This document shows positions 4,775 to 17,786 of a DNA stretch of 64,000 nt, one piece after another. This DNA is from Patescibacteria group bacterium (lineage in GTDB: Bacteria > Patescibacteriota > Patescibacteriia > JBAZBY01): the NCBI GenBank assembly GCA_041671225.1, contig JBAZBY010000001.1, positions 763,454 through 827,453 on the forward strand, read 5' to 3'. The number at the start of each line of letters is the position of its first letter. The stretch's first letter is position 1. Made by a program: the position numbers and the translations under genes. The notes beneath the pieces are model-generated. The model did no database searches. It was not told the origin of the DNA and saw only the letters and a program-made list of their open reading frames with translations.

Positions 4775-4989
4775 ACTTGTCCGCCTCTGGCGGAGGGATT
4801 TATCGCCTCGCCCCGCGCCTAGCGGTGCTCGTTGTCCGGGGCAGCAGTGAACGCTGCGCCAGCTCGCGTTCCCTGATCGCTCGCCGTCGCCACGCCTTCG
4901 GCAAGTGGCTTGGCTCGCTTCTGCCCGGTTCGAATCCTCCATAAACAAAAAAGGTTCTGCCGCCCGCAGACGGGCGCCAAAACCTTTTT

Positions 4990-5177
4990 GGCTCTCTTTA
5001 CTGTGCGCCGCGCGAACCTATTTTGAGACGCAGGAAGGAAAAAACGGGGAAAAATGAAAAAATCTTCTCTTGGAGGGGCGGGGCGGAATTCCCCCCAAAC
5101 CCCCCTTCCGCCCCGCCCCTTTTCTTGGGCGCGAAAATCTGAGAGTACGAAGATCTTTGTTTTACTACCGTCGCTTC
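4990..5177. repeat. 188-bp inverted repeat, arm A (perfect reverse complement of 10276-10463)
   Basis: Verified by direct reverse-complement comparison. It contains the GGGGCGGGGCGGAATTCCCCCCAAACCCCCCTTCCGCCCCGCCCC G-rich palindrome. Confidence 0.9.
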
Positions 5178-5302
5178 ACCCTTCGTGCTTGCTCAGTGCT
5201 TGCTTCGTGTTCGTTCGGTGGTGTCCATGGTAACTCTTTGTGCTTACCCCACCCGCCCTGTGAGCGCGTAAACCCGTCCGCTAACGCGGACGACTCCTTT
5301 AA

Positions 5303-7666
5303 TTAGTATTTTTGATAAATGGTGTTAAAGTCTGTAATTTTTCCTTTAAGCTGTGAAAGGCCGTGGTCGTCGCCCACATCAACATGAGAAGTAGTCCAAT
5401 TACAAAAAGAATATATATTCTTGATCTTATCCAAATCGTCGTCAGAAACTTGCTTATTTGTTTTTATGCCATCTACAACTTTTGGAAAGTCCTGCAATAC
5501 ATCAAGGTGTAGGAGACGGCATTTAATAAAGTTTTCAGTCTCGTATCTTAAATATTGGCCATACTCAACTATTTGAAGTTCAACATCAAAACCATTCTGG
5601 TTTTGTCCAAGTTGCAATAAATGTTCCTCAAAGTTGGTAAGTTTTTCAATGAACCTTTGCGTCATGCTTTTACAAATAAAGCTCCCGCCAAATCTCTTTT
5701 CGTTTCTTAGAATGTTGTATTCAAGTGATTGATCGCGGAATTTTTTGCGCAGAAACTTAAAAAATGTTCTGTGGTGAGTAAAAACAAATGTTTGTGAGAA
5801 TTTGTCTTTTTCAGTAGCAATCAAATCTACCAAGCTACTCAAGTTGCTATCGTCTAAACTTGTAATAGGATCGTCAAAGATAAGAATTTTCTTATCCTCA
5901 TCTTTCTGAATATCAAGGAAGGCAAAAAAGAAGCAGAGTGATAGAACCTGTATCTCGCCTTCCGACAGTCCTTCTTTAAGATCTCTTTCGGTCCCGTCAG
6001 AATCAATGACCCTAAACGCTAAAGGCAACTCTTTTGTAGAACCTGTGTGGCGATTGTCTGTATCAAGTTCTAAAGTAAAACTAAATTTGAAATTGCTAAA
6101 ATAGGATTCAATTTTTCGGAGTGTTTTTTTAAAAGCACCCTTAGCGCAATACTCCTCGTAGGATTCTCTTGCTATTTTGTGGGCTTCTCGTGCCTTCTCA
6201 AGCGACCTTATTAACTTGTTTAATTCTTTTAGTTGTTGGAGTTTGAACTTATTACTTTCAATCTTATTACTATTGATAAACCCCAACTCCCGCTCAATAT
6301 CATTCAAATTTCTTTGATTCTTTTCGATTCTACCAGCTAATTTTTCATCAGTATGCTCCTTTTTGAAATTTCTAATAAGCTTATTCTTGGCTTTTACAAA
6401 GCGCGCAAGTTCTAAAAAATATTTTTTTAGATTACTAAACTCATCTCGCGCCTCGCCAAACAGAATGGATATATCCTCTTTGGTAGGTTTCCCAAGATTA
6501 ACAAGTTTTGTTTTTAACTCGCCGATCTTTTTTAGGGTCGGTAATTTTCTAAAATATTCCTCCTTTTCTATGTCGTAAAGTCCTTTTATGGTATATTGTT
6601 CAACGAGCTTCTTCATTTTGATAAAATAATCGTCCAACTCAAACTCGTTGAGTGCCTCTTGTACTTGTTCCAGCTCTGCTATTAAGGTTTCCTTGTATTT
6701 TTCAAACTGACCCTCCTGCTCCTTATAAGATTCATCATAAATTTGATTGTAAGTTTTGACTATCTGTTTTATTTCTTCCTCTCTATTTTGCGTCCCGCAA
6801 AACGGGCATTGATTTGGGTGTTCATCTCTTACATCAAACCCCATTTCAAAAAATTCTTTATGTTTTTTAATCTGCTCAACCAAACTACGCTCGGCCTCCA
6901 CTTTTGCACGCTCTTTTAGTTTGAAATTAAAAACTTTCTGATAGGAAGTTTTTGAGGAGAGGTTAAACTCGATATCAACTTCCTCTAATTCTTGTATGAC
7001 TTGAACTTCCCTCGTCTTTTGCAAGAGCTGACTATCAAGTTCTAGTTCGTTGGACAAATCCACCCTCTTTTGACCGAGTTCTTCCCTTATGTTCTTAGTA
7101 GTATTTTCGTCCTTTCGTTTATACTTTCTAAAAAGTCTTTCCCCATCTTCATCTAATTCAAAACCAAGAACCCGTTTATTGCTTGTCTTAAAGTCATCAA
7201 GTTTCTGATTTTTCTCCTCCTTTATTCCAGCCAATCTATCCCTAACCTTGCGAAGTTCAATGGCATCGCCGTCAAACTCTATGACGAGGTTTCCGGATTC
7301 TTGCTCCTGTTCACCTTGCTGTGTACCTCGTTCACGGCCAAGATGAACATGCCTATCCACAAATTCCCGGTCAAAAAATAATATAGAATCTTTCGGAATA
7401 TAATCATCCCACTTATCCTCAGTGCGAGTATATTTATACCTCTTACTATCAATCAATACTTGCGCTTCTTCAGGGTAGCATTTAGTAAATTTTTTATTTT
7501 GAGATACGCTTTTAAGAATGTTACAAATTGAACTTTTTCCGCTTCCGTTCTCGCCATATAAAATGTTGGTCTTTTGGTGGAAATTCTCGGTATTAAAAAA
7601 ATTATGCCAAGAAAAATCTTGGAATGATTTATAACTTTTTATCTTCTTGATTTGCTTGAGTTTCAT
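5303..7666 (-). CDS. AAA_13-family ABC-type ATPase with a long coiled coil and Rad50-like CxxC zinc hook (RloC/PrrC-like; candidate anticodon nuclease or defence ATPase)
   Basis: Walker A GENGSGKSS at the N-terminus. A lysine/glutamate-rich coiled coil of about 450 aa has CPFCG at its centre. Walker B ILIFDDPITSLD and the H-loop FTHH follow. A C-terminal extension of about 170 aa contains RLLH. The gene is AT-rich (about 35% GC). Confidence 0.65.
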   Translation of the reverse strand: MKLKQIKKIKSYKSFQDFSWHNFFNTENFHQKTNILYGENGSGKSSICNILKSVSQNKKFTKCYPEEAQVLIDSKRYKYTRTEDKWDDYIPKDSILFFDREFVDRHVHLGRERGTQQGEQEQESGNLVIEFDGDAIELRKVRDRLAGIKEEKNQKLDDFKTSNKRVLGFELDEDGERLFRKYKRKDENTTKNIREELGQKRVDLSNELELDSQLLQKTREVQVIQELEEVDIEFNLSSKTSYQKVFNFKLKERAKVEAERSLVEQIKKHKEFFEMGFDVRDEHPNQCPFCGTQNREEEIKQIVKTYNQIYDESYKEQEGQFEKYKETLIAELEQVQEALNEFELDDYFIKMKKLVEQYTIKGLYDIEKEEYFRKLPTLKKIGELKTKLVNLGKPTKEDISILFGEARDEFSNLKKYFLELARFVKAKNKLIRNFKKEHTDEKLAGRIEKNQRNLNDIERELGFINSNKIESNKFKLQQLKELNKLIRSLEKAREAHKIARESYEEYCAKGAFKKTLRKIESYFSNFKFSFTLELDTDNRHTGSTKELPLAFRVIDSDGTERDLKEGLSEGEIQVLSLCFFFAFLDIQKDEDKKILIFDDPITSLDDSNLSSLVDLIATEKDKFSQTFVFTHHRTFFKFLRKKFRDQSLEYNILRNEKRFGGSFICKSMTQRFIEKLTNFEEHLLQLGQNQNGFDVELQIVEYGQYLRYETENFIKCRLLHLDVLQDFPKVVDGIKTNKQVSDDDLDKIKNIYSFCNWTTSHVDVGDDHGLSQLKGKITDFNTIYQKY

Positions 7667-7692
7667 CTTCCGGTCATGGCAAGGACGTCTTG

Positions 7693-8862
7693 TTACCGAT
7701 TTCCTTTTGCTCTATTGTGTGTTTTACACAGCATCTCACAATTCTTCGCCGAAGTAGCACCGCCCTTGCTCCACGCTGATACATGGTCTGCTTCCATTTC
7801 GCCAAAACCCCAAATCTTGCTTTTGTTAGCATCATGCCCAACGGCGCAAAGCGAGCAGTTTGACTTCTCTTTGGTTTCAGCCTCTTTGGTTTGTTTAGCA
7901 TAAACAGATCGTTTGGTCGCCTCATCAAAAAATCGGACATCTAGCAATTTTGTATCAACGGAGCCACCGAGAATGTATTCAAAAATGCCTCTGCGATTTT
8001 TGATATACGGATCACCATAGAGCTTATGCACCTCAGCCGATACTTTGGCTGGGTTATATGATTTTTTGTGATACTCCCCGTAAAGTCGTCCCCATTCAAG
8101 CCCGCGCATTTCGCTTTCTACGTCGGTAAATACGCCAGATACCCAATCAATGACGGTGTTAAAGTATTTTTTCAGCTCATCAATGTTTTTGTCTTTGCGA
8201 TGCTTGCTCATGTAATCGCCAATATTGCCTTTGCTAACCCAATCCAAAGCACATTCCAAAAATTCCTGTCGGTTCGCACTACCGGATACATATGCGCTCC
8301 ATTTTTGAATGTTGGCGTTTTGGCTATTGCTAAATTCTTCTTTAGCCCTAGTTACGAATGGACCGGAATACACGGCGTTGAGTAACTCCTGATTATTAAG
8401 TGGAACACCAGCAATATTTATGGTCTTGAACCATTCTTTTATCTGACTCTCTGTTCCTTCACATTCGTAAATGAGTAGTTTCGTTTCCAAAATCTTGGCT
8501 TGTTTGTCTTTTGCCATGCCACCAAAGTATTGTTCCATGCCATTTTCGTCCTTGATGGCAAATTTGTCCGTGATAAATCGTCCGAGACTTGTGATGCGCT
8601 GTTGTCCATCTAAAACTTCTAGGTTGTCGGCGGAGACGATATTAAAATAAATCAATCCGATTGGGTATCCCTTGAGAACTGATTCGATGACGGCCATTTC
8701 TCTTTTTCCGCCATCAGATGCATAAATATAATTTCGTTGATACTCCGGTTGGATGGTAAGCTTGCCAGACAAGCCAAACAGACCCTTACCCTCAAGTTCG
8801 TTATAGACAAATCCGTCACAGATCTCTTGAACAGTTACATTGGTTTTTAGGGTTGTTTTCAT
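7693..8862 (-). CDS. DUF262 (ParB-like NTPase/nuclease) domain fused to a C-terminal HNH nuclease; GmrSD-like type IV restriction enzyme candidate
   Basis: The N-terminal DGQQR motif ([13 protein letters not shown]) is typical of DUF262. The C-terminal HNH motif is CSLCAVGHD...[11 protein letters not shown]...[15 protein letters not shown]. Confidence 0.7.
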
Positions 8863-8863
8863 A

Positions 8864-9991
8864 TTATTTCTTTTTAATAAATATCCGCTTGAATTTGGTT
8901 TTTCCGTTTATTATGCAATGAGGATTTTTGCCGTCCCAAATGCCGCCAGAAAAGCCCTTTCCGTTATCTTCTGCCATTCCGACAATTTCAAATTGTTCAG
9001 GATTATATTTGTCCAAATAACTAATTGGCACACCCATCACACCTTCATAATCACTTGGGATGGCGTCGGTAAACGGCACTTCTATTGCATTATAATTGTC
9101 ATATTTATAATATGTTTTTTCGCCTTTAATCTCTTTGTGTCTACTGTATTTCAAATTTTCTTCCATTGTCATAAGTGGTAATGGTTGATGACGTCTTCCG
9201 TGATCAAGATTAGTGAGCCATAAACAGCTATTAGTAGCAACAATTCTATCCCCATTTTCATCTATTCGCGCTTCTGTTCCAAATAATTCGTAAGATTTGG
9301 GTACAATAAACCCAGAAATCCATCTTCCCATTCCATTACCAAGCCATATTTCATTATTTCTAATTTTTGGGAAAACTTCTTTATATGTTATGCAATTAAT
9401 ATTGCCGATTATCAAAAACTTTTTTTTGTGTTCAAAAAGTTGCTTAACATACTCACGGAACAAACTAAACGGCGGATTGGTTACCACAATATCAGACTGT
9501 TTCAGTAATGCTATACATTCGGGACTTCTGAAGTCACCATCTTCCTCAAGGGGCATCCATTCGTTGTTTTTGTTTTCCTTTAACTGTTTGGCAACATCTT
9601 TCAGATTGAACTCGCCATCGCCGTCTATGTCGTGCACTTCGTTTATAATGAATGTATTGGCAGTTATCTTTGGACGGCCTTTTGCATTTACAAGCGTTTT
9701 GTCATCACCAAATAATCCCAGTTGCGTGTTGGCGACAGGCGATGGTTTGTAGCTCGTTGTGATTAGCTGTTTCAGTCCAAGTCTGTTGAAATTGAGAACA
9801 AAATAACGGAAGAAATTACTCTCAAATGGATCGTCGCAGTTGCAATACACAACTTTAGCTCGAAATGTATTAGGGTTGTAATCTAAATACTTCTCAATTT
9901 CTTTCTGAATATCGCCATATTGAGTATAAAACTCATCGTTCTTTGCTCGTTTCGCATTTGTAAGATTTTTGACTGATGCTTCTCTAGCCAT
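8864..9991 (-). CDS. putative DNA N6-adenine/N4-cytosine amino-methyltransferase (NPPF catalytic motif)
   Basis: [12 protein letters not shown] matches motif IV (D/N)PP(Y/F). The upstream [11 protein letters not shown] resembles a degenerate motif I. It lies 1 nt from the DUF262-HNH gene on the same strand. Confidence 0.55.
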
Positions 9992-9995
9992 AAAT

Positions 9996-10244
9996 TTACC
10001 TCAAAAGCTCGTCGCTCGTTACTCCCAACGCTTGAGCTATTTTCTCAATGGTGGCAAGCGTGGGGTTGCCTTTGCCCGATTCAATATTGCTCATTTGAGC
10101 ACGATCAAGCCCTACCGCACGGCAAACGTCGCCTTGCGACATTTCCTTTTGCTCGCGTATGCGCTTGATATTTTTACCAAGTCTGGACGTTGGGGTTCTT
10201 ATATTCACAGATGTAATATAGCCAGATATTGTGTCGTATGACAA
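9996..10244 (-). CDS. XRE-family helix-turn-helix transcriptional regulator (controller-like)
   Basis: LGKNIKRIREQKEMSQGDVCRAVGLDRAQMSNIESGKGNPTLATIEKIAQALGVTSDELL is a canonical HTH_XRE domain. It is the first gene of the minus-strand cassette. Confidence 0.75.
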   Translation of the reverse strand: MSYDTISGYITSVNIRTPTSRLGKNIKRIREQKEMSQGDVCRAVGLDRAQMSNIESGKGNPTLATIEKIAQALGVTSDELLR

Positions 10245-10275
10245 TAATGTGTTATATTACAAGTATGCTGAAATC

Positions 10276-10463
10276 GAAGCGACGGTAGTAAAACAAAGAT
10301 CTTCGTACTCTCAGATTTTCGCGCCCAAGAAAAGGGGCGGGGCGGAAGGGGGGTTTGGGGGGAATTCCGCCCCGCCCCTCCAAGAGAAGATTTTTTCATT
10401 TTTCCCCGTTTTTTCCTTCCTGCGTCTCAAAATAGGTTCGCGCGGCGCACAGTAAAGAGAGCC
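10276..10463. repeat. 188-bp inverted repeat, arm A' (reverse complement of 4990-5177)
   Basis: Perfect match over 188 bp. The likely promoter region of the HTH gene lies inside this arm. Confidence 0.9.
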
Positions 10464-10531
10464 AGCTCATACTTCTGGAATTTTCCGCCAAAATTTTCCA
10501 CGGCTTTTCCCAAGTCCACAGGGGCTTTCTG
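10459..10531. repeat. 73-bp inverted repeat, arm B (reverse complement of 12060-12132), with an imperfect extension to about 10557
   Basis: Verified by reverse-complement comparison. It shares the 5-nt GGCTC core (10459-10463) with arm A'. Confidence 0.85.
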
Positions 10532-10677
10532 CCAAGGAGGAGGCGGTTCGTGGCACGGAACGTGCCACCAAGGAATTTCTAAAAAACACATATTAGAAAT
10601 TTCTTGGTTCCAATGTTTTCCACGTTTCCGCCAAAGGCGGAAAGACGAAGCAAGATTTATTCTTCTGGCGAATCCCT

Positions 10678-12159
10678 ATGACATATTTCCTCTACGCAAG
10701 AAAATCCAGCGAGGACGAAGAACGCCAAGTGATGTCCATAGAGGCACAGCTTGTTGAATTGGAACAATTTGCAAAACGTGAGAACCTCACGATTGCCAAG
10801 CAGTTTGTGGAGAGTAAAAGTGCAAAAGCACCCGGCCGCGAAGTGTTCAACCACATGCTTTCCGCAATCTACAAAAGCAAGGAACCCGTTGGCATTCTTG
10901 CGTGGCATCCGGATCGTCTCGCGCGCAATTCCGTTGACGGCGGCCAAATCATTTATCTCGTTGATACTGGGAAGGTCATTGCGCTCAAGTTCCCGACATT
11001 TTGGTTTGAACCAACGCCGCAAGGATTGTTCATGTTGCAGGTGGCATTCGGGCAATCGAAATACTATTCAGACAACTTGTCCGAGAACGTAAAACGCGGG
11101 ATTCGCCAGAAGCTCCGCAAAGGAGAATGGCCCGGCCCTGCGCCGTTCGGATATGTGAATAATCGAAACACGCATAGTATTGATCCGGATCCGGTGAAAG
11201 CAAAAATCGTCCGGCGTATCTTTGAGGAGTATGCAACCGGAGAATACAACCTCCGCACGATTGGAGAACACTTTGCACTCTGGGGCGTGGTGAGCGCGTC
11301 CGGCAAACCTTTGGCAAAATCCACCCTGAAGCATCTGCTTACGCACCAAGCATATATTGGAACGATTATTTGGAGTGGTGAGCCGTATGAAGGTTCATTC
11401 CCGCCGTTGGTGCCAAAGGACGTGTTTGAGACCGTCCAGCACGTCATAAAAAGCCAAGAGAAGCGCAGGTACGTCCGCCGGAAGCATGATTTCTCATTCC
11501 TTGGCCTATTCCGCTGTGGAGAATGCGGCGGGGCGATTACGGCTCAACTTGCCAAGGGAAACGGCGGCACATACCGCTATTATCGTTGCACCAAAAAGTT
11601 TGGCCTGTGTAAACAGGGTTACATTCAGGAAAGTGATTTTGCAGTGCTTTTGAGAAAGGAAGTTAATCGTGTTGCGATTAACGAGCAGTGCGCCTCGCGC
11701 ATGCTTGAACAAGTGAAACTGTGGGAACGTGAAGAAAACGTTGATGGCGAAAAACATACGCGCGAAAGAAAAACGAAGTTGGAAGTGATTGACCAAAAAC
11801 TTGATACCCTCGTTAACGCCTTTCTTGAAGGTACGTTAGAAAAGGAAACCTACCTCAAAAAGAAAGCCGAACTAATTGACGCCAAAGCTGGCCTTCGGGA
11901 AGAAAAGGTATCTTTACAAGCGCGAGGCGCACAATGGATCGAACCACTACGAAACTGGATAAACCGCGCTCACCACGCCCAAAATCTTGCTTCGTCTGAT
12001 GATTTGAGCAAACTCAAATCATTCGTGGAAAACATTGGAACGAACCGCCTCCTCCTCGACAGAAAGCCCCTGTGGACTTGGGAAAAGCCGTGGAAAATTT
12101 TGGCGGAAAATTCCAGAAGTATGAGCTGGCTCGGGGACAGGGATTCGAACCCCGATTGA
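10678..12159 (+). CDS. large serine recombinase (integrase/resolvase family)
   Basis: The N-terminal resolvase catalytic domain is YARKSSEDEERQVMSIEAQ...AWHPDRLARN. A recombinase domain and a zinc ribbon (CGECGG...YYRCTKKFGLC) follow, then a C-terminal coiled coil. The last 33 nt overlap the tRNA 3' end and the att arm, so the true stop may lie earlier. Confidence 0.85.
   Translation: MTYFLYARKSSEDEERQVMSIEAQLVELEQFAKRENLTIAKQFVESKSAKAPGREVFNHMLSAIYKSKEPVGILAWHPDRLARNSVDGGQIIYLVDTGKVIALKFPTFWFEPTPQGLFMLQVAFGQSKYYSDNLSENVKRGIRQKLRKGEWPGPAPFGYVNNRNTHSIDPDPVKAKIVRRIFEEYATGEYNLRTIGEHFALWGVVSASGKPLAKSTLKHLLTHQAYIGTIIWSGEPYEGSFPPLVPKDVFETVQHVIKSQEKRRYVRRKHDFSFLGLFRCGECGGAITAQLAKGNGGTYRYYRCTKKFGLCKQGYIQESDFAVLLRKEVNRVAINEQCASRMLEQVKLWEREENVDGEKHTRERKTKLEVIDQKLDTLVNAFLEGTLEKETYLKKKAELIDAKAGLREEKVSLQARGAQWIEPLRNWINRAHHAQNLASSDDLSKLKSFVENIGTNRLLLDRKPLWTWEKPWKILAENSRSMSWLGDRDSNPD
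12060..12132. repeat. 73-bp inverted repeat, arm B'; abuts and includes the last 5 nt of tRNA-Gln
   Basis: Perfect reverse complement of 10459-10531. An imperfect extension runs from 12033 to 12059. Confidence 0.85.
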
Positions 12160-12200
12160 CGGCGCCAAAGGCCGCTGTCCTACCATTAGACGATCCCCGA
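12127..12200 (-). tRNA. tRNA-Gln (anticodon UUG), 74 nt including encoded CCA
   Basis: The reverse complement reads TCGGGGA-TC-GTCTAATGGTAGGAC-A-GCGGC-CTTTGGC-GCCGT-CAAT-CGGGG-TTCGAAT-CCCTG-TCCCCGA-G-CCA. The 7-bp acceptor stem and a GGTTCGAATCC T-arm are present, and the anticodon loop CUUUGGC gives anticodon UUG. Confidence 0.8.
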
Positions 12201-12337
12201 ATGGATCTCGCCAGCGAGCATACCAAACGCGTGCAGCAGTGTAAAGTGCATTTGACGGGGCATTCTATCCAAACTAGGATGCAAACATTCGGCATTTTCG
12301 CCGACGCTCTGTCACATTCCTGAAAGGGGCCATTACC

Positions 12338-15456: not shown

Positions 15457-15635
15457 ACCTTTTGCCCGCGCAACAGACTCATTGTTTTGCATCTGCCAGA
15501 GCCGCAAGAAGAGGTTTTTTGGGTATTGACATACGCGATAAGAAGTGTAGTGTCCTATTGCAGTTTACGCGCAATCCCGTCCAAAGGGGTTGATTTCAAT
15601 GCCCTTTGACAGGTGAAAAACCTGGAGAAGGGGGG

Positions 15636-17786
15636 ATGCTAACCATGAGGAGAAACGGCATGAGACGGAACGTGAAGTTCTCTATGCTCATCGCAGCGGC
15701 GGCCATCTTGCTGGCAGCTGCTACGGCGAGTGCCACGACATATGTTGTGAAACCTGACGGCACGGGGGACTACCCCACCATCCAGGCGGCGATCGCGGCT
15801 GTCGCCAACGGCAGCATCATCGAGCTCACCGACGGCACCTTCATTGGTGCCGGCAATCGTGACATCGACTTCGCGGGAAAGGCGATCACAGTCCGTTCCC
15901 AAAGCGGGAACGCGGAAGCCTGTGTTATTGATTGCCAGGGGTCGATGTCTACGCCTTACATCGGAGTCTACTTCGACTCTGGTGAGGGCGTGAACTCCAA
16001 GCTGGCCGATATCAAGATAATCAACGGTTTCAGCAGTTTCACCTATCAGCCGTTGGCGATCTACGTGTATAGCGCTGGCCCAACGATTGACGGATGTGTC
16101 TTCGTGGACAACGGGATCTATGTCTCTGGGTATGCGAGTCCGCAGTTCGTGCGGAACACATTCCGGGACTTCAACTCGGGCGGGATGATGCAGCCTCCGA
16201 TTTCCGTGACGAACACAAGCTCAAGCGTGGCAACGTTGACCATCGAGGACAATGTGTTCAAGGACTGCACATTCGGTGGCCAGTACTCGTCTGGGACAGC
16301 GATCTCGGTGAGCGGGACGGGGTCGGCCACCAACACTGCCTACATCAGACGCAACGTCTTCGAAAATCTCAACGGAACCGCAGTCGCTCTAGGTGGAACC
16401 GGCGATGTCACGGTCTGGGGTCATCTCGACGACAACGTCATCAAGGCGTGCGGCAACTCGATGATGTCCACTCCGGCCGTAAGCATTTCTACCAACAGTA
16501 CCTCGGACACCCACATGCTTATGTCAGGCAACGTCTTCGTTGACTGCCAGTCAGCCGCCATCAAGACCTGGGGGTACAACCCCAACATCTGGGTAGCGGT
16601 TGATTCCACGACCATTACAGGTTGTGATGCTGGGATCATCAAGGGTACCGCGGTGGCGTCGCTGGCCATCAGCCACACCATCCTGTGGAACACCGATGAC
16701 CTGAACGGCGTGCTGTCGTCCGAAGTCAGCTGTTCCGATATCGGCAACGGCGACTTCCTCGGCGTGAACGGTAACTTCAGTGACGATCCGATGTTCTGCG
16801 ACGCAGCGAACGGAGACTTCCAGATCAACGTTAAGTCGTCGTGCGTCACTGGGTACGGTTGCGGGTTGGTCGGTGCTCTGGGGGTTGGCTGCGATGTCGT
16901 GATCACCGAGGTCAAGGACATCCCGAACGATCAAGGACGGCGTGTGCTTGGTACGTGGCTGGCGGCTTTTGCCGATACTGGCAGCGTGTCCGAGTACACC
17001 ATCTGGGGAAAGTACGAGTACAGTGCCAAGGGTGACCTCACCACGCTCTCGTATCCGCCCGGCACGTGGTACTACGTCATGACTGTCCCGGCTTGCGAGG
17101 AGAGTGTGTACAGTGCAGTATGGCCGACGCTGGCAGATTCGAATGCGGCCGGCATGCAGTACAGCACGTTCTTCGTGAGAGCCAAGATCGGGAACTCGTA
17201 TCTGGATTCGGATCCTGCTTCTGGCTACTCGGTGGACAATCTTCCGCCCAGCGTCCCGGGAGGATTCGCTGGGGAGTTCGATGCCGGCTTGACGGTTCTG
17301 ACGTGGGATGAGGCCCTGGAGGGGGATTTCAACCACTACAAGGTCTACAGCGGGTCGAGCGCCGACTTCATCCCCGGGCCCGGCAACCTGCTGGGTGCGG
17401 TGATTGAACCGACGTTCTCTGATGCCAGTTGGGGGCTGTATTACAAGGTGAGCGTCGTGGACTTCAACGGCAACGAGAGCGCCTTCGCGCTCTTGAGGCC
17501 GGAAGAAGTCACAGGCGTGAAGGAGACCGGCGCGGTACCGGTGATGGCGCTTGCGCCGCTCACCAATCCGCTCCGGGGGCAGATGTCCCTCTCGTTCTCA
17601 CTCGCCTCGGACCTGCCGGGGGAGATCGTCGTCTATGATCTCGCCGGACGTCGCGTGGCCGGGAAGCGGGTCTCGGGTGCCGGTGCGCAGACGATGTCCT
17701 TCGGCGACTTGCCGTCGGGTATCTACTGGGCACGCCTTACCCAAGGCGTGGCCCAGGTGACGGCCAAGGTGGTCGTCATCCAGTAG
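15636..17786 (+). CDS. secreted right-handed parallel beta-helix protein with a C-terminal FlgD-Ig/T9SS-type sorting domain
   Basis: SD GGAGAAGGGGGG precedes the ATG at 15636. The signal peptide is MLIAAAAILLAAATASA. Repetitive beta-helix-like G/N/T-rich segments follow. The C-terminal tail EIVVYDLAGRRVAGKRV...LPSGIYWARL...AKVVVIQ is the sorting domain. GC is about 62%. Confidence 0.6.
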   Translation: MLTMRRNGMRRNVKFSMLIAAAAILLAAATASATTYVVKPDGTGDYPTIQAAIAAVANGSIIELTDGTFIGAGNRDIDFAGKAITVRSQSGNAEACVIDCQGSMSTPYIGVYFDSGEGVNSKLADIKIINGFSSFTYQPLAIYVYSAGPTIDGCVFVDNGIYVSGYASPQFVRNTFRDFNSGGMMQPPISVTNTSSSVATLTIEDNVFKDCTFGGQYSSGTAISVSGTGSATNTAYIRRNVFENLNGTAVALGGTGDVTVWGHLDDNVIKACGNSMMSTPAVSISTNSTSDTHMLMSGNVFVDCQSAAIKTWGYNPNIWVAVDSTTITGCDAGIIKGTAVASLAISHTILWNTDDLNGVLSSEVSCSDIGNGDFLGVNGNFSDDPMFCDAANGDFQINVKSSCVTGYGCGLVGALGVGCDVVITEVKDIPNDQGRRVLGTWLAAFADTGSVSEYTIWGKYEYSAKGDLTTLSYPPGTWYYVMTVPACEESVYSAVWPTLADSNAAGMQYSTFFVRAKIGNSYLDSDPASGYSVDNLPPSVPGGFAGEFDAGLTVLTWDEALEGDFNHYKVYSGSSADFIPGPGNLLGAVIEPTFSDASWGLYYKVSVVDFNGNESAFALLRPEEVTGVKETGAVPVMALAPLTNPLRGQMSLSFSLASDLPGEIVVYDLAGRRVAGKRVSGAGAQTMSFGDLPSGIYWARLTQGVAQVTAKVVVIQ

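Follow-up and report, generated by a model that had tools for sequence, protein, structure and literature searches.

A tRNA-targeting serine-recombinase island in a Patescibacteria genome, probably with a spare inverted attP that accounts for its nested repeats

Serine integrases are prized in biology and genome engineering for their one-way attP × attB logic, in which attP is lost on integration. A locus in the genome of a Patescibacteria group bacterium raises the question of what kind of element would hold its attP region twice. The window, that is, the whole 64-kb stretch of the contig that was analyzed and whose positions serve as coordinates throughout, contains two inverted repeats, A/A′ and B/B′, which are nested around a defence operon and a large serine recombinase (LSR) gene, share a 6-nt core, and abut a tRNA-Gln gene. 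We regard it as probable, though well short of certain, that 4989-12132 is one integrated island of ~7.1 kb, belonging to a non-phage LSR family that inserts at tRNA 3′ ends and carrying a spare attP in inverted orientation. The attP region of the island, comprising the last ~90 nt of the recombinase open reading frame (ORF), the 6-nt core, and a P′ arm of ~190 nt, is present twice, inverted. Integration has divided one copy between attL (host flank, core, A) and attR (B′, core, tRNA), and the other stands intact as junction J2 (A′, core, B) between the recombinase gene and a divergent operon of an XRE regulator and defence genes. This combination of a split and an intact attP causes the nested, core-sharing repeats, and it is a conserved hallmark of the family. 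The features on which the argument turns are the following.

4956..4988, minus strand: left host flank of attB, with the original tRNA-Gln terminator and trailer, moved 7.1 kb off by the insertion
4989..4994, plus strand: core copy 1, TGGCTC, in attL (J3), from the repeat search
4989..5177, plus strand: arm A, a P′-type half-site with an alternative recombinase ORF tail, then a strong hairpin and a T-run
10276..10464, minus strand: arm A′, the inverted copy of A and P′ half of the intact internal attP (J2)
10459..10464, minus strand: core copy 2, GAGCCA, in J2
10459..10551, minus strand: arm B, a non-coding inverted copy of the last ~31 recombinase codons and P half of J2
10552..10677, plus strand: recombinase upstream region, made up of the inner, degenerate stretch of the B copy and an inserted 57-nt block with two palindromes, presumed regulatory
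10678..12159, plus strand: large serine recombinase, 493 aa, whose last nine codons and stop are antisense tRNA-Gln (Pfam)
12040..12132, plus strand: arm B′ (coding), P half of attR (J1)
12127..12132, plus strand: core copy 3, TGGCTC, antisense of the tRNA end ...GAGCCA-3′
12127..12200, minus strand: tRNA-Gln(UUG), whose T-loop is a B-type half-site with GAAC at +14 after the core (ARAGORN, Rfam)

The geometry of the repeats is precise. A repeat search places A at 4989-5177 and A′ at 10276-10464, with 100% complementarity over 189 nt; a first-pass annotation of this DNA had already described a perfect inverted repeat here, at a length of 188 nt. B and B′ (10459-10551 and 12040-12132) match at 98% over 93 nt, within which the 73 bp previously reported form the perfect part; the two single-nucleotide differences lie 73 and 75 nt from the core. 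The match resumes over an extra 21 nt (10604-10624 and 12024-12044), and alignment shows B to repeat at least 150 nt of the recombinase 3′ end in inverted, degenerate form, broken by a palindrome-rich insertion of 57 nt. A′ and B overlap at 10459-10464 by GAGCCA, or TGGCTC on the other strand, so that the shared core formerly given as the 5-nt GGCTC exists and is 6 nt long. This core is the antisense of the tRNA-Gln 3′ end, GAGCCA. The 14-18-mers that span the arm junctions each occur at their two places only in the 64 kb, against a chance expectation of 0.06-0.33, and the junction strings first read for J3, J2, and J1 match the window sequence exactly.

Unlike a simple LSR element, of which only attL and attR are left after integration, this island retains at 10276-10551 an intact, inverted B′-core-A site. 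The J2 junction is also found in two other assemblies of the same organism, whose contigs break inside A′, as a repeat would lead one to expect, and all three assemblies share the junctions of cargo with A′ and of B with the recombinase upstream region. The G/C-rich perfect hairpin GGGGCGGGGCGGAA...TTCCGCCCCGCCCC occurs in both A and A′ (5072-5121 and 10332-10381), and one NCBI contig of the organism ends exactly in the A′ copy (its start, in locus L001, corresponds to about window position 10342).

The product of the recombinase gene matches the Pfam families Resolvase (PF00239, 7.2e-20, residues 4-151), Recombinase (PF07508, 1.2e-13), and Zn_ribbon_recom (PF13408, 1.9e-8). Among 32 homologues the catalytic R8 and S10 are invariant, together with C280, C283, C304, and C311. 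The closest solved structure is that of the SPbeta integrase (E 2.5e-14, with a match across residues 6-437), and region 330-420, charged and heptad-like by sequence, is a candidate for the coiled-coil insertion in DBD2 that governs directionality in large serine recombinases. The exact protein is on record on a 1.03-Mb contig. Its C-terminus reads ...SRSMSW-LGDRDSNPD, and everything after the tryptophan, whose TGG codon is antisense CCA, is translated from the antisense strand of the tRNA, inside which the ORF stops; this upholds the earlier proposal that B′ and antisense tRNA together encode the C-terminus and the stop codon. In the attP configuration the window ORF would end W-LSLLCAARTYFETQEGKNGEK and a stop codon, followed by the strong hairpin and T-run within A (hairpin at 5072-5121; the folded stretch has −42 kcal/mol). 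Since A holds both this tail and the hairpin with its T-run, A supplies the recombinase's own tail and terminator, and integration swapped both for antisense tRNA. A search of the upstream region at 10552-10677 found no convincing sigma-70 promoter. The palindromes of the 57-nt insertion, GTGGCACGGAACGTGCCAC and GGAATTTCTAA...TTAGAAATTTC, are candidate terminator or operator elements.

The target tRNA-Gln(UUG) remains intact at 12127-12200 on the minus strand (Rfam 60.4 bits). Joining the left flank to position 12133 onward rebuilds tRNA-Gln...GAGCCA, then AAAAGG and the terminator, a terminator-like hairpin and T-run on the minus strand at 4970-4956; the reconstructed empty attB reads …CCTTTTTGGCTCGGGGACAG…. 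Because the island has displaced this terminator, read-through from the tRNA would go antisense into the recombinase gene. The cargo has a GC content of 34-42%, compared with 47-60% in the flanks, and the locus has the features of a tRNA-targeting genomic island, namely, an intact tRNA 3′ end, foreign composition, and accessory cargo. Upstream of the tRNA gene, a promoter-like site (TTTACA-17-TGnTATGCT) lies at 12217-12245 on the minus strand.

The half-sites themselves argue for the assignment of the three junctions. When the sites are aligned on the point at which J1 departs from the reverse complement of J2, the A arm bears a strongly conserved consensus of 33 nt (ca.tT.CTGAACgaaGctCGAACcTTTTTTgAg) with GAAC at +19, and the tRNA arm bears its T-loop GAAC at +14; this pair of positions recurs in ~36 of 38 loci, the window included. 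In serine integrases, a 5-bp outward shift of the DBD2 motif marks attP-type as opposed to attB-type half-sites (PMC11722253). The GAAC of A, 5 bp farther out than that of the tRNA, fits this difference, the shift being shown for right-hand half-sites only. Among the left arms, a weak AAAGTT motif is all that B′ shows, and the host flanks on that side are unconserved and devoid of a motif among relatives; dyad symmetry of the sites was considered and rejected on these grounds. By these arm motifs, J2 reads P/P′, J3 reads (weak B)/P′, and J1 reads P/B′. This layout supports the first-pass assignment of J3 as attL, J2 as an intact inverted attP, and J1 as attR of a large serine recombinase. It likewise supports crossover in the core, which we place in the last tRNA nucleotides, with the central dinucleotide, where enzymes of this family make a staggered cut of 2 nt, bracketed only to the last 3-4 nt of the core.

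Is this arrangement a peculiarity of one genome? Databases hold more than 7,500 recombinase homologues, the best at ~55-62% identity and many on contigs of 1.6-4 kb, and the pattern that emerges from aligning their C-termini, W[SL]G..D[SL]N[PL]R, is that of antisense tRNA. We collected 80 loci from species-representative genomes and then 80 metagenome loci, and the repeat census covered 173 loci. The recombinase ORF enters antisense tRNA in ~55 of the 80 genome loci; the targets are mostly tRNA-Pro, and also Gln, Trp, Arg, Met, Phe, Leu, Ser, Ala, His, Lys, and Asp. The recombinase gene is bracketed by an inverted repeat of its 3′ end in ~70 of these 80 loci, and in 149/173 after the metagenomes were added. 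The complete nested layout, assessed only where a locus has enough upstream sequence, runs host flank, core, A, cargo, A′, core, B, recombinase, B′, core, tRNA; it is found in 17 further loci, where the cargo measures 1.1-8.9 kb, A 145-435 nt, B 92-182 nt, and the core overlap 3-6 nt. Among loci that can be typed on both outer sides, 69 of 72 are canonical. A homologue of the XRE gene is the first cargo gene in 45 loci, 160-700 nt beyond B and divergent from the recombinase.

Several features of these relatives speak to the reality of the repeats. In some nested loci the repeat copies are only 74-94% identical, and these are therefore not collapsed-repeat assembly artefacts; in two others, L006 and L089, the layout stands on contigs of 0.64 and 0.87 Mb. 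Contigs that end upstream of the recombinase gene do so ~48 or ~135 nt past the core, inside A′, and these stops equal k−1 of the usual assemblers, as expected from a second copy of A. Two loci are off-scheme: in L088 (1400-1960 versus 7300-7709) the second A copy lacks the core-proximal 100 nt, and in L130 (1-240 and 1740-1860) two different A-type arms flank the recombinase module. A phage origin was rejected, with three weak or partial matches among 2.9 million viral contigs.

Further observations on individual members concern tails, reading frames, and remnants. Recombinases at least 90% identical to one another bear many different tRNA-derived tails, indicating that the same element type has inserted in many different tRNA-Pro genes or hosts; in one member, P0245, the tail is an A-type/tRNA-type chimera. 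An ORF of 120-180 aa, called through A′, core, and B into the recombinase upstream region (L089:9445-9981 and its equivalents in L090-L095), has no Pfam match and is probably spurious, being antisense of coding-like sequence, although gene callers predict it consistently. To the left of attL in L089 (3020-3140), a degenerate B end, a core, and an antisense tRNA-Pro fragment form a fossil attR, which suggests repeated insertion and decay at one tRNA. In L087, two extra degenerate A′ copies (75-80%) bound further cargo.

The identity of the repeat copies is graded with distance from the core. For B/B′ the mismatch per nucleotide is 1-3% within 60 nt of the core and ~11% at 90-135 nt; for A/A′ it is 0.7% at 20-80 nt and 4-8% at 80-140 nt. 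Furthermore, although L018 and L086 match at 99.94% in the recombinase body, the outer ~130 nt of B′ in L086 bear the single-nucleotide polymorphisms (SNPs) of the B copy, which makes this a gene-conversion tract ending at the core. The ongoing conversion suspected from the perfect window arms is thereby supported, through a core-anchored tract in relatives and fewer mismatches near the core. The gradient indicates either that both core-proximal copies matter or that conversion begins at the core, and the data fit both. Conversion from the B copy rewrites ~40 C-terminal codons of the recombinase (L018 versus L086; P0033 versus P0053), with ...ILFDFRPPYDLVPKY... in one form and ...LIFDFVRPFDFVPKY... 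in the other, so that the upstream pseudo-copy acts as a donor of alternative coding sequence.

Evidence for inversion is confined to the recombinase module. L089 and L090-L096 are canonical, the former on an 873-kb contig; L097 shares their host flank and element but has the recombinase module the other way round. There, host genes and tRNA-Ala/Phe/Pro lie upstream of the recombinase and are co-directional with it, and its ORF continues across B′ into A and on into the XRE gene. The 158-nt repeat copies of L097 differ at a SNP that every 141-mer covers, and the contig is therefore resolved. The informative SNP lies 72 nt from the inner end and has remained linked to the outer flank, which places the exchange at least 86 nt from the core and argues for homologous recombination over a core crossover. 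In L039 a full tRNA-Pro abuts B and antisense tRNA abuts B′, with four SNPs between the copies; the module is probably inverted, and the locus is consistent with both module orientations in one population. In each of the 45 loci with an XRE gene placed upstream of the recombinase, the cargo operon points the same way. Apparent cargo inversions in L127, L119, and L035 were rejected as contig-edge cases. Also rejected were A-type tails (WSQLLNEVRT..) as signs of excised or flipped forms: such tails occur in ~1/5 to 1/3 of full-length members in some 90% clusters, and J2 of every element offers a path through B′, core, and A. The contigs of L086, L087, and L127 start inside the repeat, like lollipops, so their loop orientation is arbitrary and their flips are uninformative. 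The earlier suggestion that the recombinase inverts both segments accordingly retains weak backing: the module is inverted in L097 and probably in L039, and the cargo is constant.

How might an island of this kind live? When excised, it would form a circle in which two inverted, attP-bearing repeats of ~280 bp part a recombinase arc from a cargo arc. Integration would have used the attP copy at the 3′ end of the recombinase gene, and gene conversion would keep both copies identical near the core. Homologous recombination across B/B′ would occasionally flip the recombinase module, toggling it between a tRNA-convergent state, as in the window, and a tRNA-co-directional state with its native tail and terminator. 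We take J2 to be a functional site of recombinase binding that selection maintains, as a spare attP, as an operator or accessory site between the divergent promoters, or as both. Candidate reasons for keeping it are use as a second integration site, as an operator, as an accessory to excision without a directionality factor, or as a true inversion partner.

Some observations weigh against an island with a spare attP. A lone attP ought to suffice for both integration and excision, which leaves the advantage of a second copy unexplained. In the whole contigs obtained for ~175 loci there are no terminal direct repeats of the kind that mark a circular form, and no empty attB was found; hence we infer the mobility of the window copy and the circle with two attP. 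The left half-sites, both P and B, are little conserved, and the sites are therefore not textbook symmetric LSR sites. Many apparent flips are uninformative about orientation, and the case for inversion consists of one well-resolved short-read contig (L097) together with L039, which a strain mixture could mimic.

Among the rival explanations, two take J2 to be at work within the integrated locus, and we consider each of them decidedly improbable. If the element were a double inversion switch driven by its own enzyme, LSR crossover at the cores of J3 and J2 and of J2 and J1 would flip the defence cassette, the recombinase gene, or both. The three cores are suitably oriented to one another, relatives show the recombinase module both ways round, recognition of attB seems dominated by the tRNA arm so that J1 may look B-like and J2 P-like, and GC of TGGCTC, were it the central dinucleotide, would be palindromic. 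Yet the exchange in L097 lies at least 86 nt from the core, the cargo keeps one orientation in 45/45 loci with 69/72 canonical overall, and the accepted LSR rules forbid attP × attR and attL × attP (PMC11722253); moreover, flipping a whole operon between symmetric arms would leave its expression unchanged. J2 could equally be, in the main, a cis-acting protein-binding site, either an autoregulatory operator, comparable to res in Tn3, lying between the divergent promoters of the XRE/cargo operon and the recombinase, or an accessory site at which subunits bound in the P-type manner would unlock attL and attR for excision without a directionality factor. Its constant position in the divergent intergenic region beside the XRE gene speaks for such a role, as do the core-proximal 60-80 nt of both arms, which are virtually identical to those of working sites, and no directionality-factor candidate is evident in these small elements. 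The handshake logic of LSR coiled coils makes the role conceivable (PMC11722253). The case for it is nevertheless purely inferential, an operator needs no 90-435 nt of identity, and a cis-acting role by itself leaves the complete, inverted attP form unexplained.

The remaining two readings treat the pattern as an accident, of the genome or of its assembly, and are effectively excluded. A recent one-off rearrangement, in which a tandem, dimeric, or inverted second integration was followed by deletion, would fit the perfect identity of the window arms, and the fossil att remnants and extra degenerate A copies of L089 and L087 show that insertions at one tRNA do repeat. It becomes highly improbable in view of the single recombinase and single cargo, the recurrence of the layout in dozens of loci from different phyla with recombinases only 43-62% identical, and the divergence of the arms in some loci (74-94%), which marks the duplication as old and inherited. 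The tandem or dimeric integration product once suggested for this locus fails on the same facts and on the inverted orientation of J2. Assembly error, whether a collapsed or palindromic contig or a chimeric path that mixes the integrated form with the excised one, has in its favor that short-read contigs of the family break at these repeats and that loop orientation is arbitrary for contigs starting inside one. We give it the least credence of all, since the junctions of cargo with A′ and of B with the upstream region recur in three assemblies, many loci have repeat copies distinguishable by SNPs, the layout stands on contigs of 0.6-1.0 Mb (L006 and L089 among them), and breaks fall k−1 nt past the core as a true second A predicts. 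An origin of the duplication through single-stranded fold-back integration or replication was dropped on paper, because chromosome ends capped by hairpins would result if a serine recombinase exchanged strands with a hairpin attP.

Returning to the island with a spare attP, a bolder extension, which we find unlikely though somewhat less so than the two alternatives that put J2 to work in the integrated state, makes the retained attP a functioning component of a control device that is complete in itself and independent of any separate directionality factor. In this three-part scheme, attR, still B-like, would be the partner with which J2-bound recombinase recombines, or else that recombinase would bridge and unlock attL and attR. 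The tRNA-convergent orientation, with antisense read-through and a junk tail, would be the silenced state; the driven state, downstream of the tRNA promoter and with native tail and terminator, would trigger mobilization. The T-loop of the tRNA would serve as a near-universal attB half-site.

The cargo of the window island is one minus-strand operon of four genes, listed here with their profile matches.

5303..7666, minus strand: AAA_13/SMC-like ATPase, 787 aa, PADLOC PDC-S06-like, LmuB-like (AAA_13 3.6e-34; PDC-S06 3.2e-29)
7693..8862, minus strand: restriction endonuclease candidate (GmrSD_N 4.7e-20, HNH 2.7e-6; PADLOC REase_II 2.8e-80)
8864..9991, minus strand: EcoRI-like adenine methyltransferase (EcoRI_methylase 6.1e-128; PADLOC MTase_II 1.1e-115)
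9996..10244, minus strand: XRE/Cro-type HTH regulator, first cargo gene, conserved backbone (HTH_3 1.7e-15)

In order of transcription these are the XRE regulator, the EcoRI-like methylase, the GmrSD/HNH nuclease, and the AAA_13 ATPase. A promoter-like site lies at the XRE gene, at 10244-10215 on the minus strand, and the true start of the gene is probably downstream of 10244. The ATPase, to judge from its sequence and its co-transcription after the restriction-modification pair, may be an extra defence component. The Pfam survey of the cargo returned defence and regulator genes instead of a replication module, and no directionality-factor candidate was evident among the genes of these very small elements. 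Across the family the cargo is mostly restriction-modification, along with CBASS-type, Fic, toxin-antitoxin, and LexA-like genes. The LexA-like proteins (LexA_DNA_bind plus Peptidase_S24) come from four islands; others carry SMODS/AGS_C (CBASS-like), Fic, RadC, HEPN/MNT, or SocA_Panacea, and a few have metabolic-looking genes (ALAD, E1-E2 ATPase). Adjoining the window island, at 15606-17786 and downstream, are proteins with Por_Secre_tail, a type IX secretion sorting domain that is unusual for Patescibacteria, the label that the host carries.

The family to which the island belongs is large and apparently undescribed, with thousands of homologues in uncultivated bacteria, mainly Patescibacteria, Omnitrophota, and other uncultivated lineages. 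Restriction-modification and other defence genes are commonly carried by such islands in bacteria of the candidate phyla radiation, and the family offers a new set of integrases that target tRNA ends. If functional, the spare site bears on the old question of how small LSR elements without a directionality factor leave the chromosome. The layout also explains why contigs in these genomes break k−1 nt past the core.

Comparison with known systems places the enzyme in familiar company. Like the phiC31, Bxb1, A118/LI, and SPbeta SprA integrases, the recombinase combines Resolvase, Recombinase, and Zn-ribbon domains with the conserved catalytic Ser and Arg, although its sequence kinship to solved integrases is remote (E 2.5e-14). 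Its sites resemble those of phage and island serine integrases in their short attP/attB core, in a DBD2 motif 5 bp farther out in the attP arm, and in hybrid attL/attR ends. Known serine-integrase elements, however, have one attP, which is consumed on integration, whereas essentially every member of this family has a second, intact, inverted attP. Unlike in those systems, the P arm lies inside the recombinase ORF and integration replaces the C-terminal tail by antisense tRNA; attB is a tRNA 3′ end of which the tRNA-side half-site alone is conserved, and the family is almost absent from viral contigs. A partial precedent for the exchangeable tail exists in mycobacteriophages of the BPs/Brujita type, where attP lies inside the gene of a tyrosine integrase and the C-terminal tail controls protein stability. 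As here, attP within an ORF makes integrated and excised states encode different C-terminal tails; the tRNA-derived tails of the present family differ in varying freely among members.

Two inversion systems offer further parallels. The excised form, if it exists, would resemble the yeast 2-micron plasmid (FLP/FRT, with inverted repeats of 599 bp) in that repeats with central cores part two unique segments and are kept identical. It differs in its serine rather than tyrosine enzyme, in a cargo where no replication genes were found, in being seen integrated only, and in that the sole mappable inversion exchange lay outside the core. As in Hin/hix, Gin/gix, and Cin/cix, the recombinase gene lies in (Hin) or beside an inverted-repeat segment, and the module is found both ways round. 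Those systems use invertases of ~190 aa with a C-terminal HTH, 26-bp sites, an enhancer, and Fis; here there are a 493-aa integrase-type protein and repeats of 93-200 nt, one orientation dominates (69/72), and core crossover is unsupported.

Another comparison is with tRNA-targeting islands, including tycheposons, some of which have LSRs: these too are small cargo or defence islands at tRNAs whose site is reused. They typically duplicate 15-50 nt or more of the tRNA as direct repeats and mostly use tyrosine integrases, whereas only 3-6 nt are shared here, and an inverted attP inside the element goes unmentioned in the tycheposon preprint. In the literature covered, which was incomplete and hence offers no proof of novelty, we found no account of a naturally occurring LSR element that keeps an inverted attP inside, nor one of this family that targets tRNA ends. 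The enzyme class and the island concept are known; the architecture, with one attP split at the ends and a second held intact within, appears to be new.

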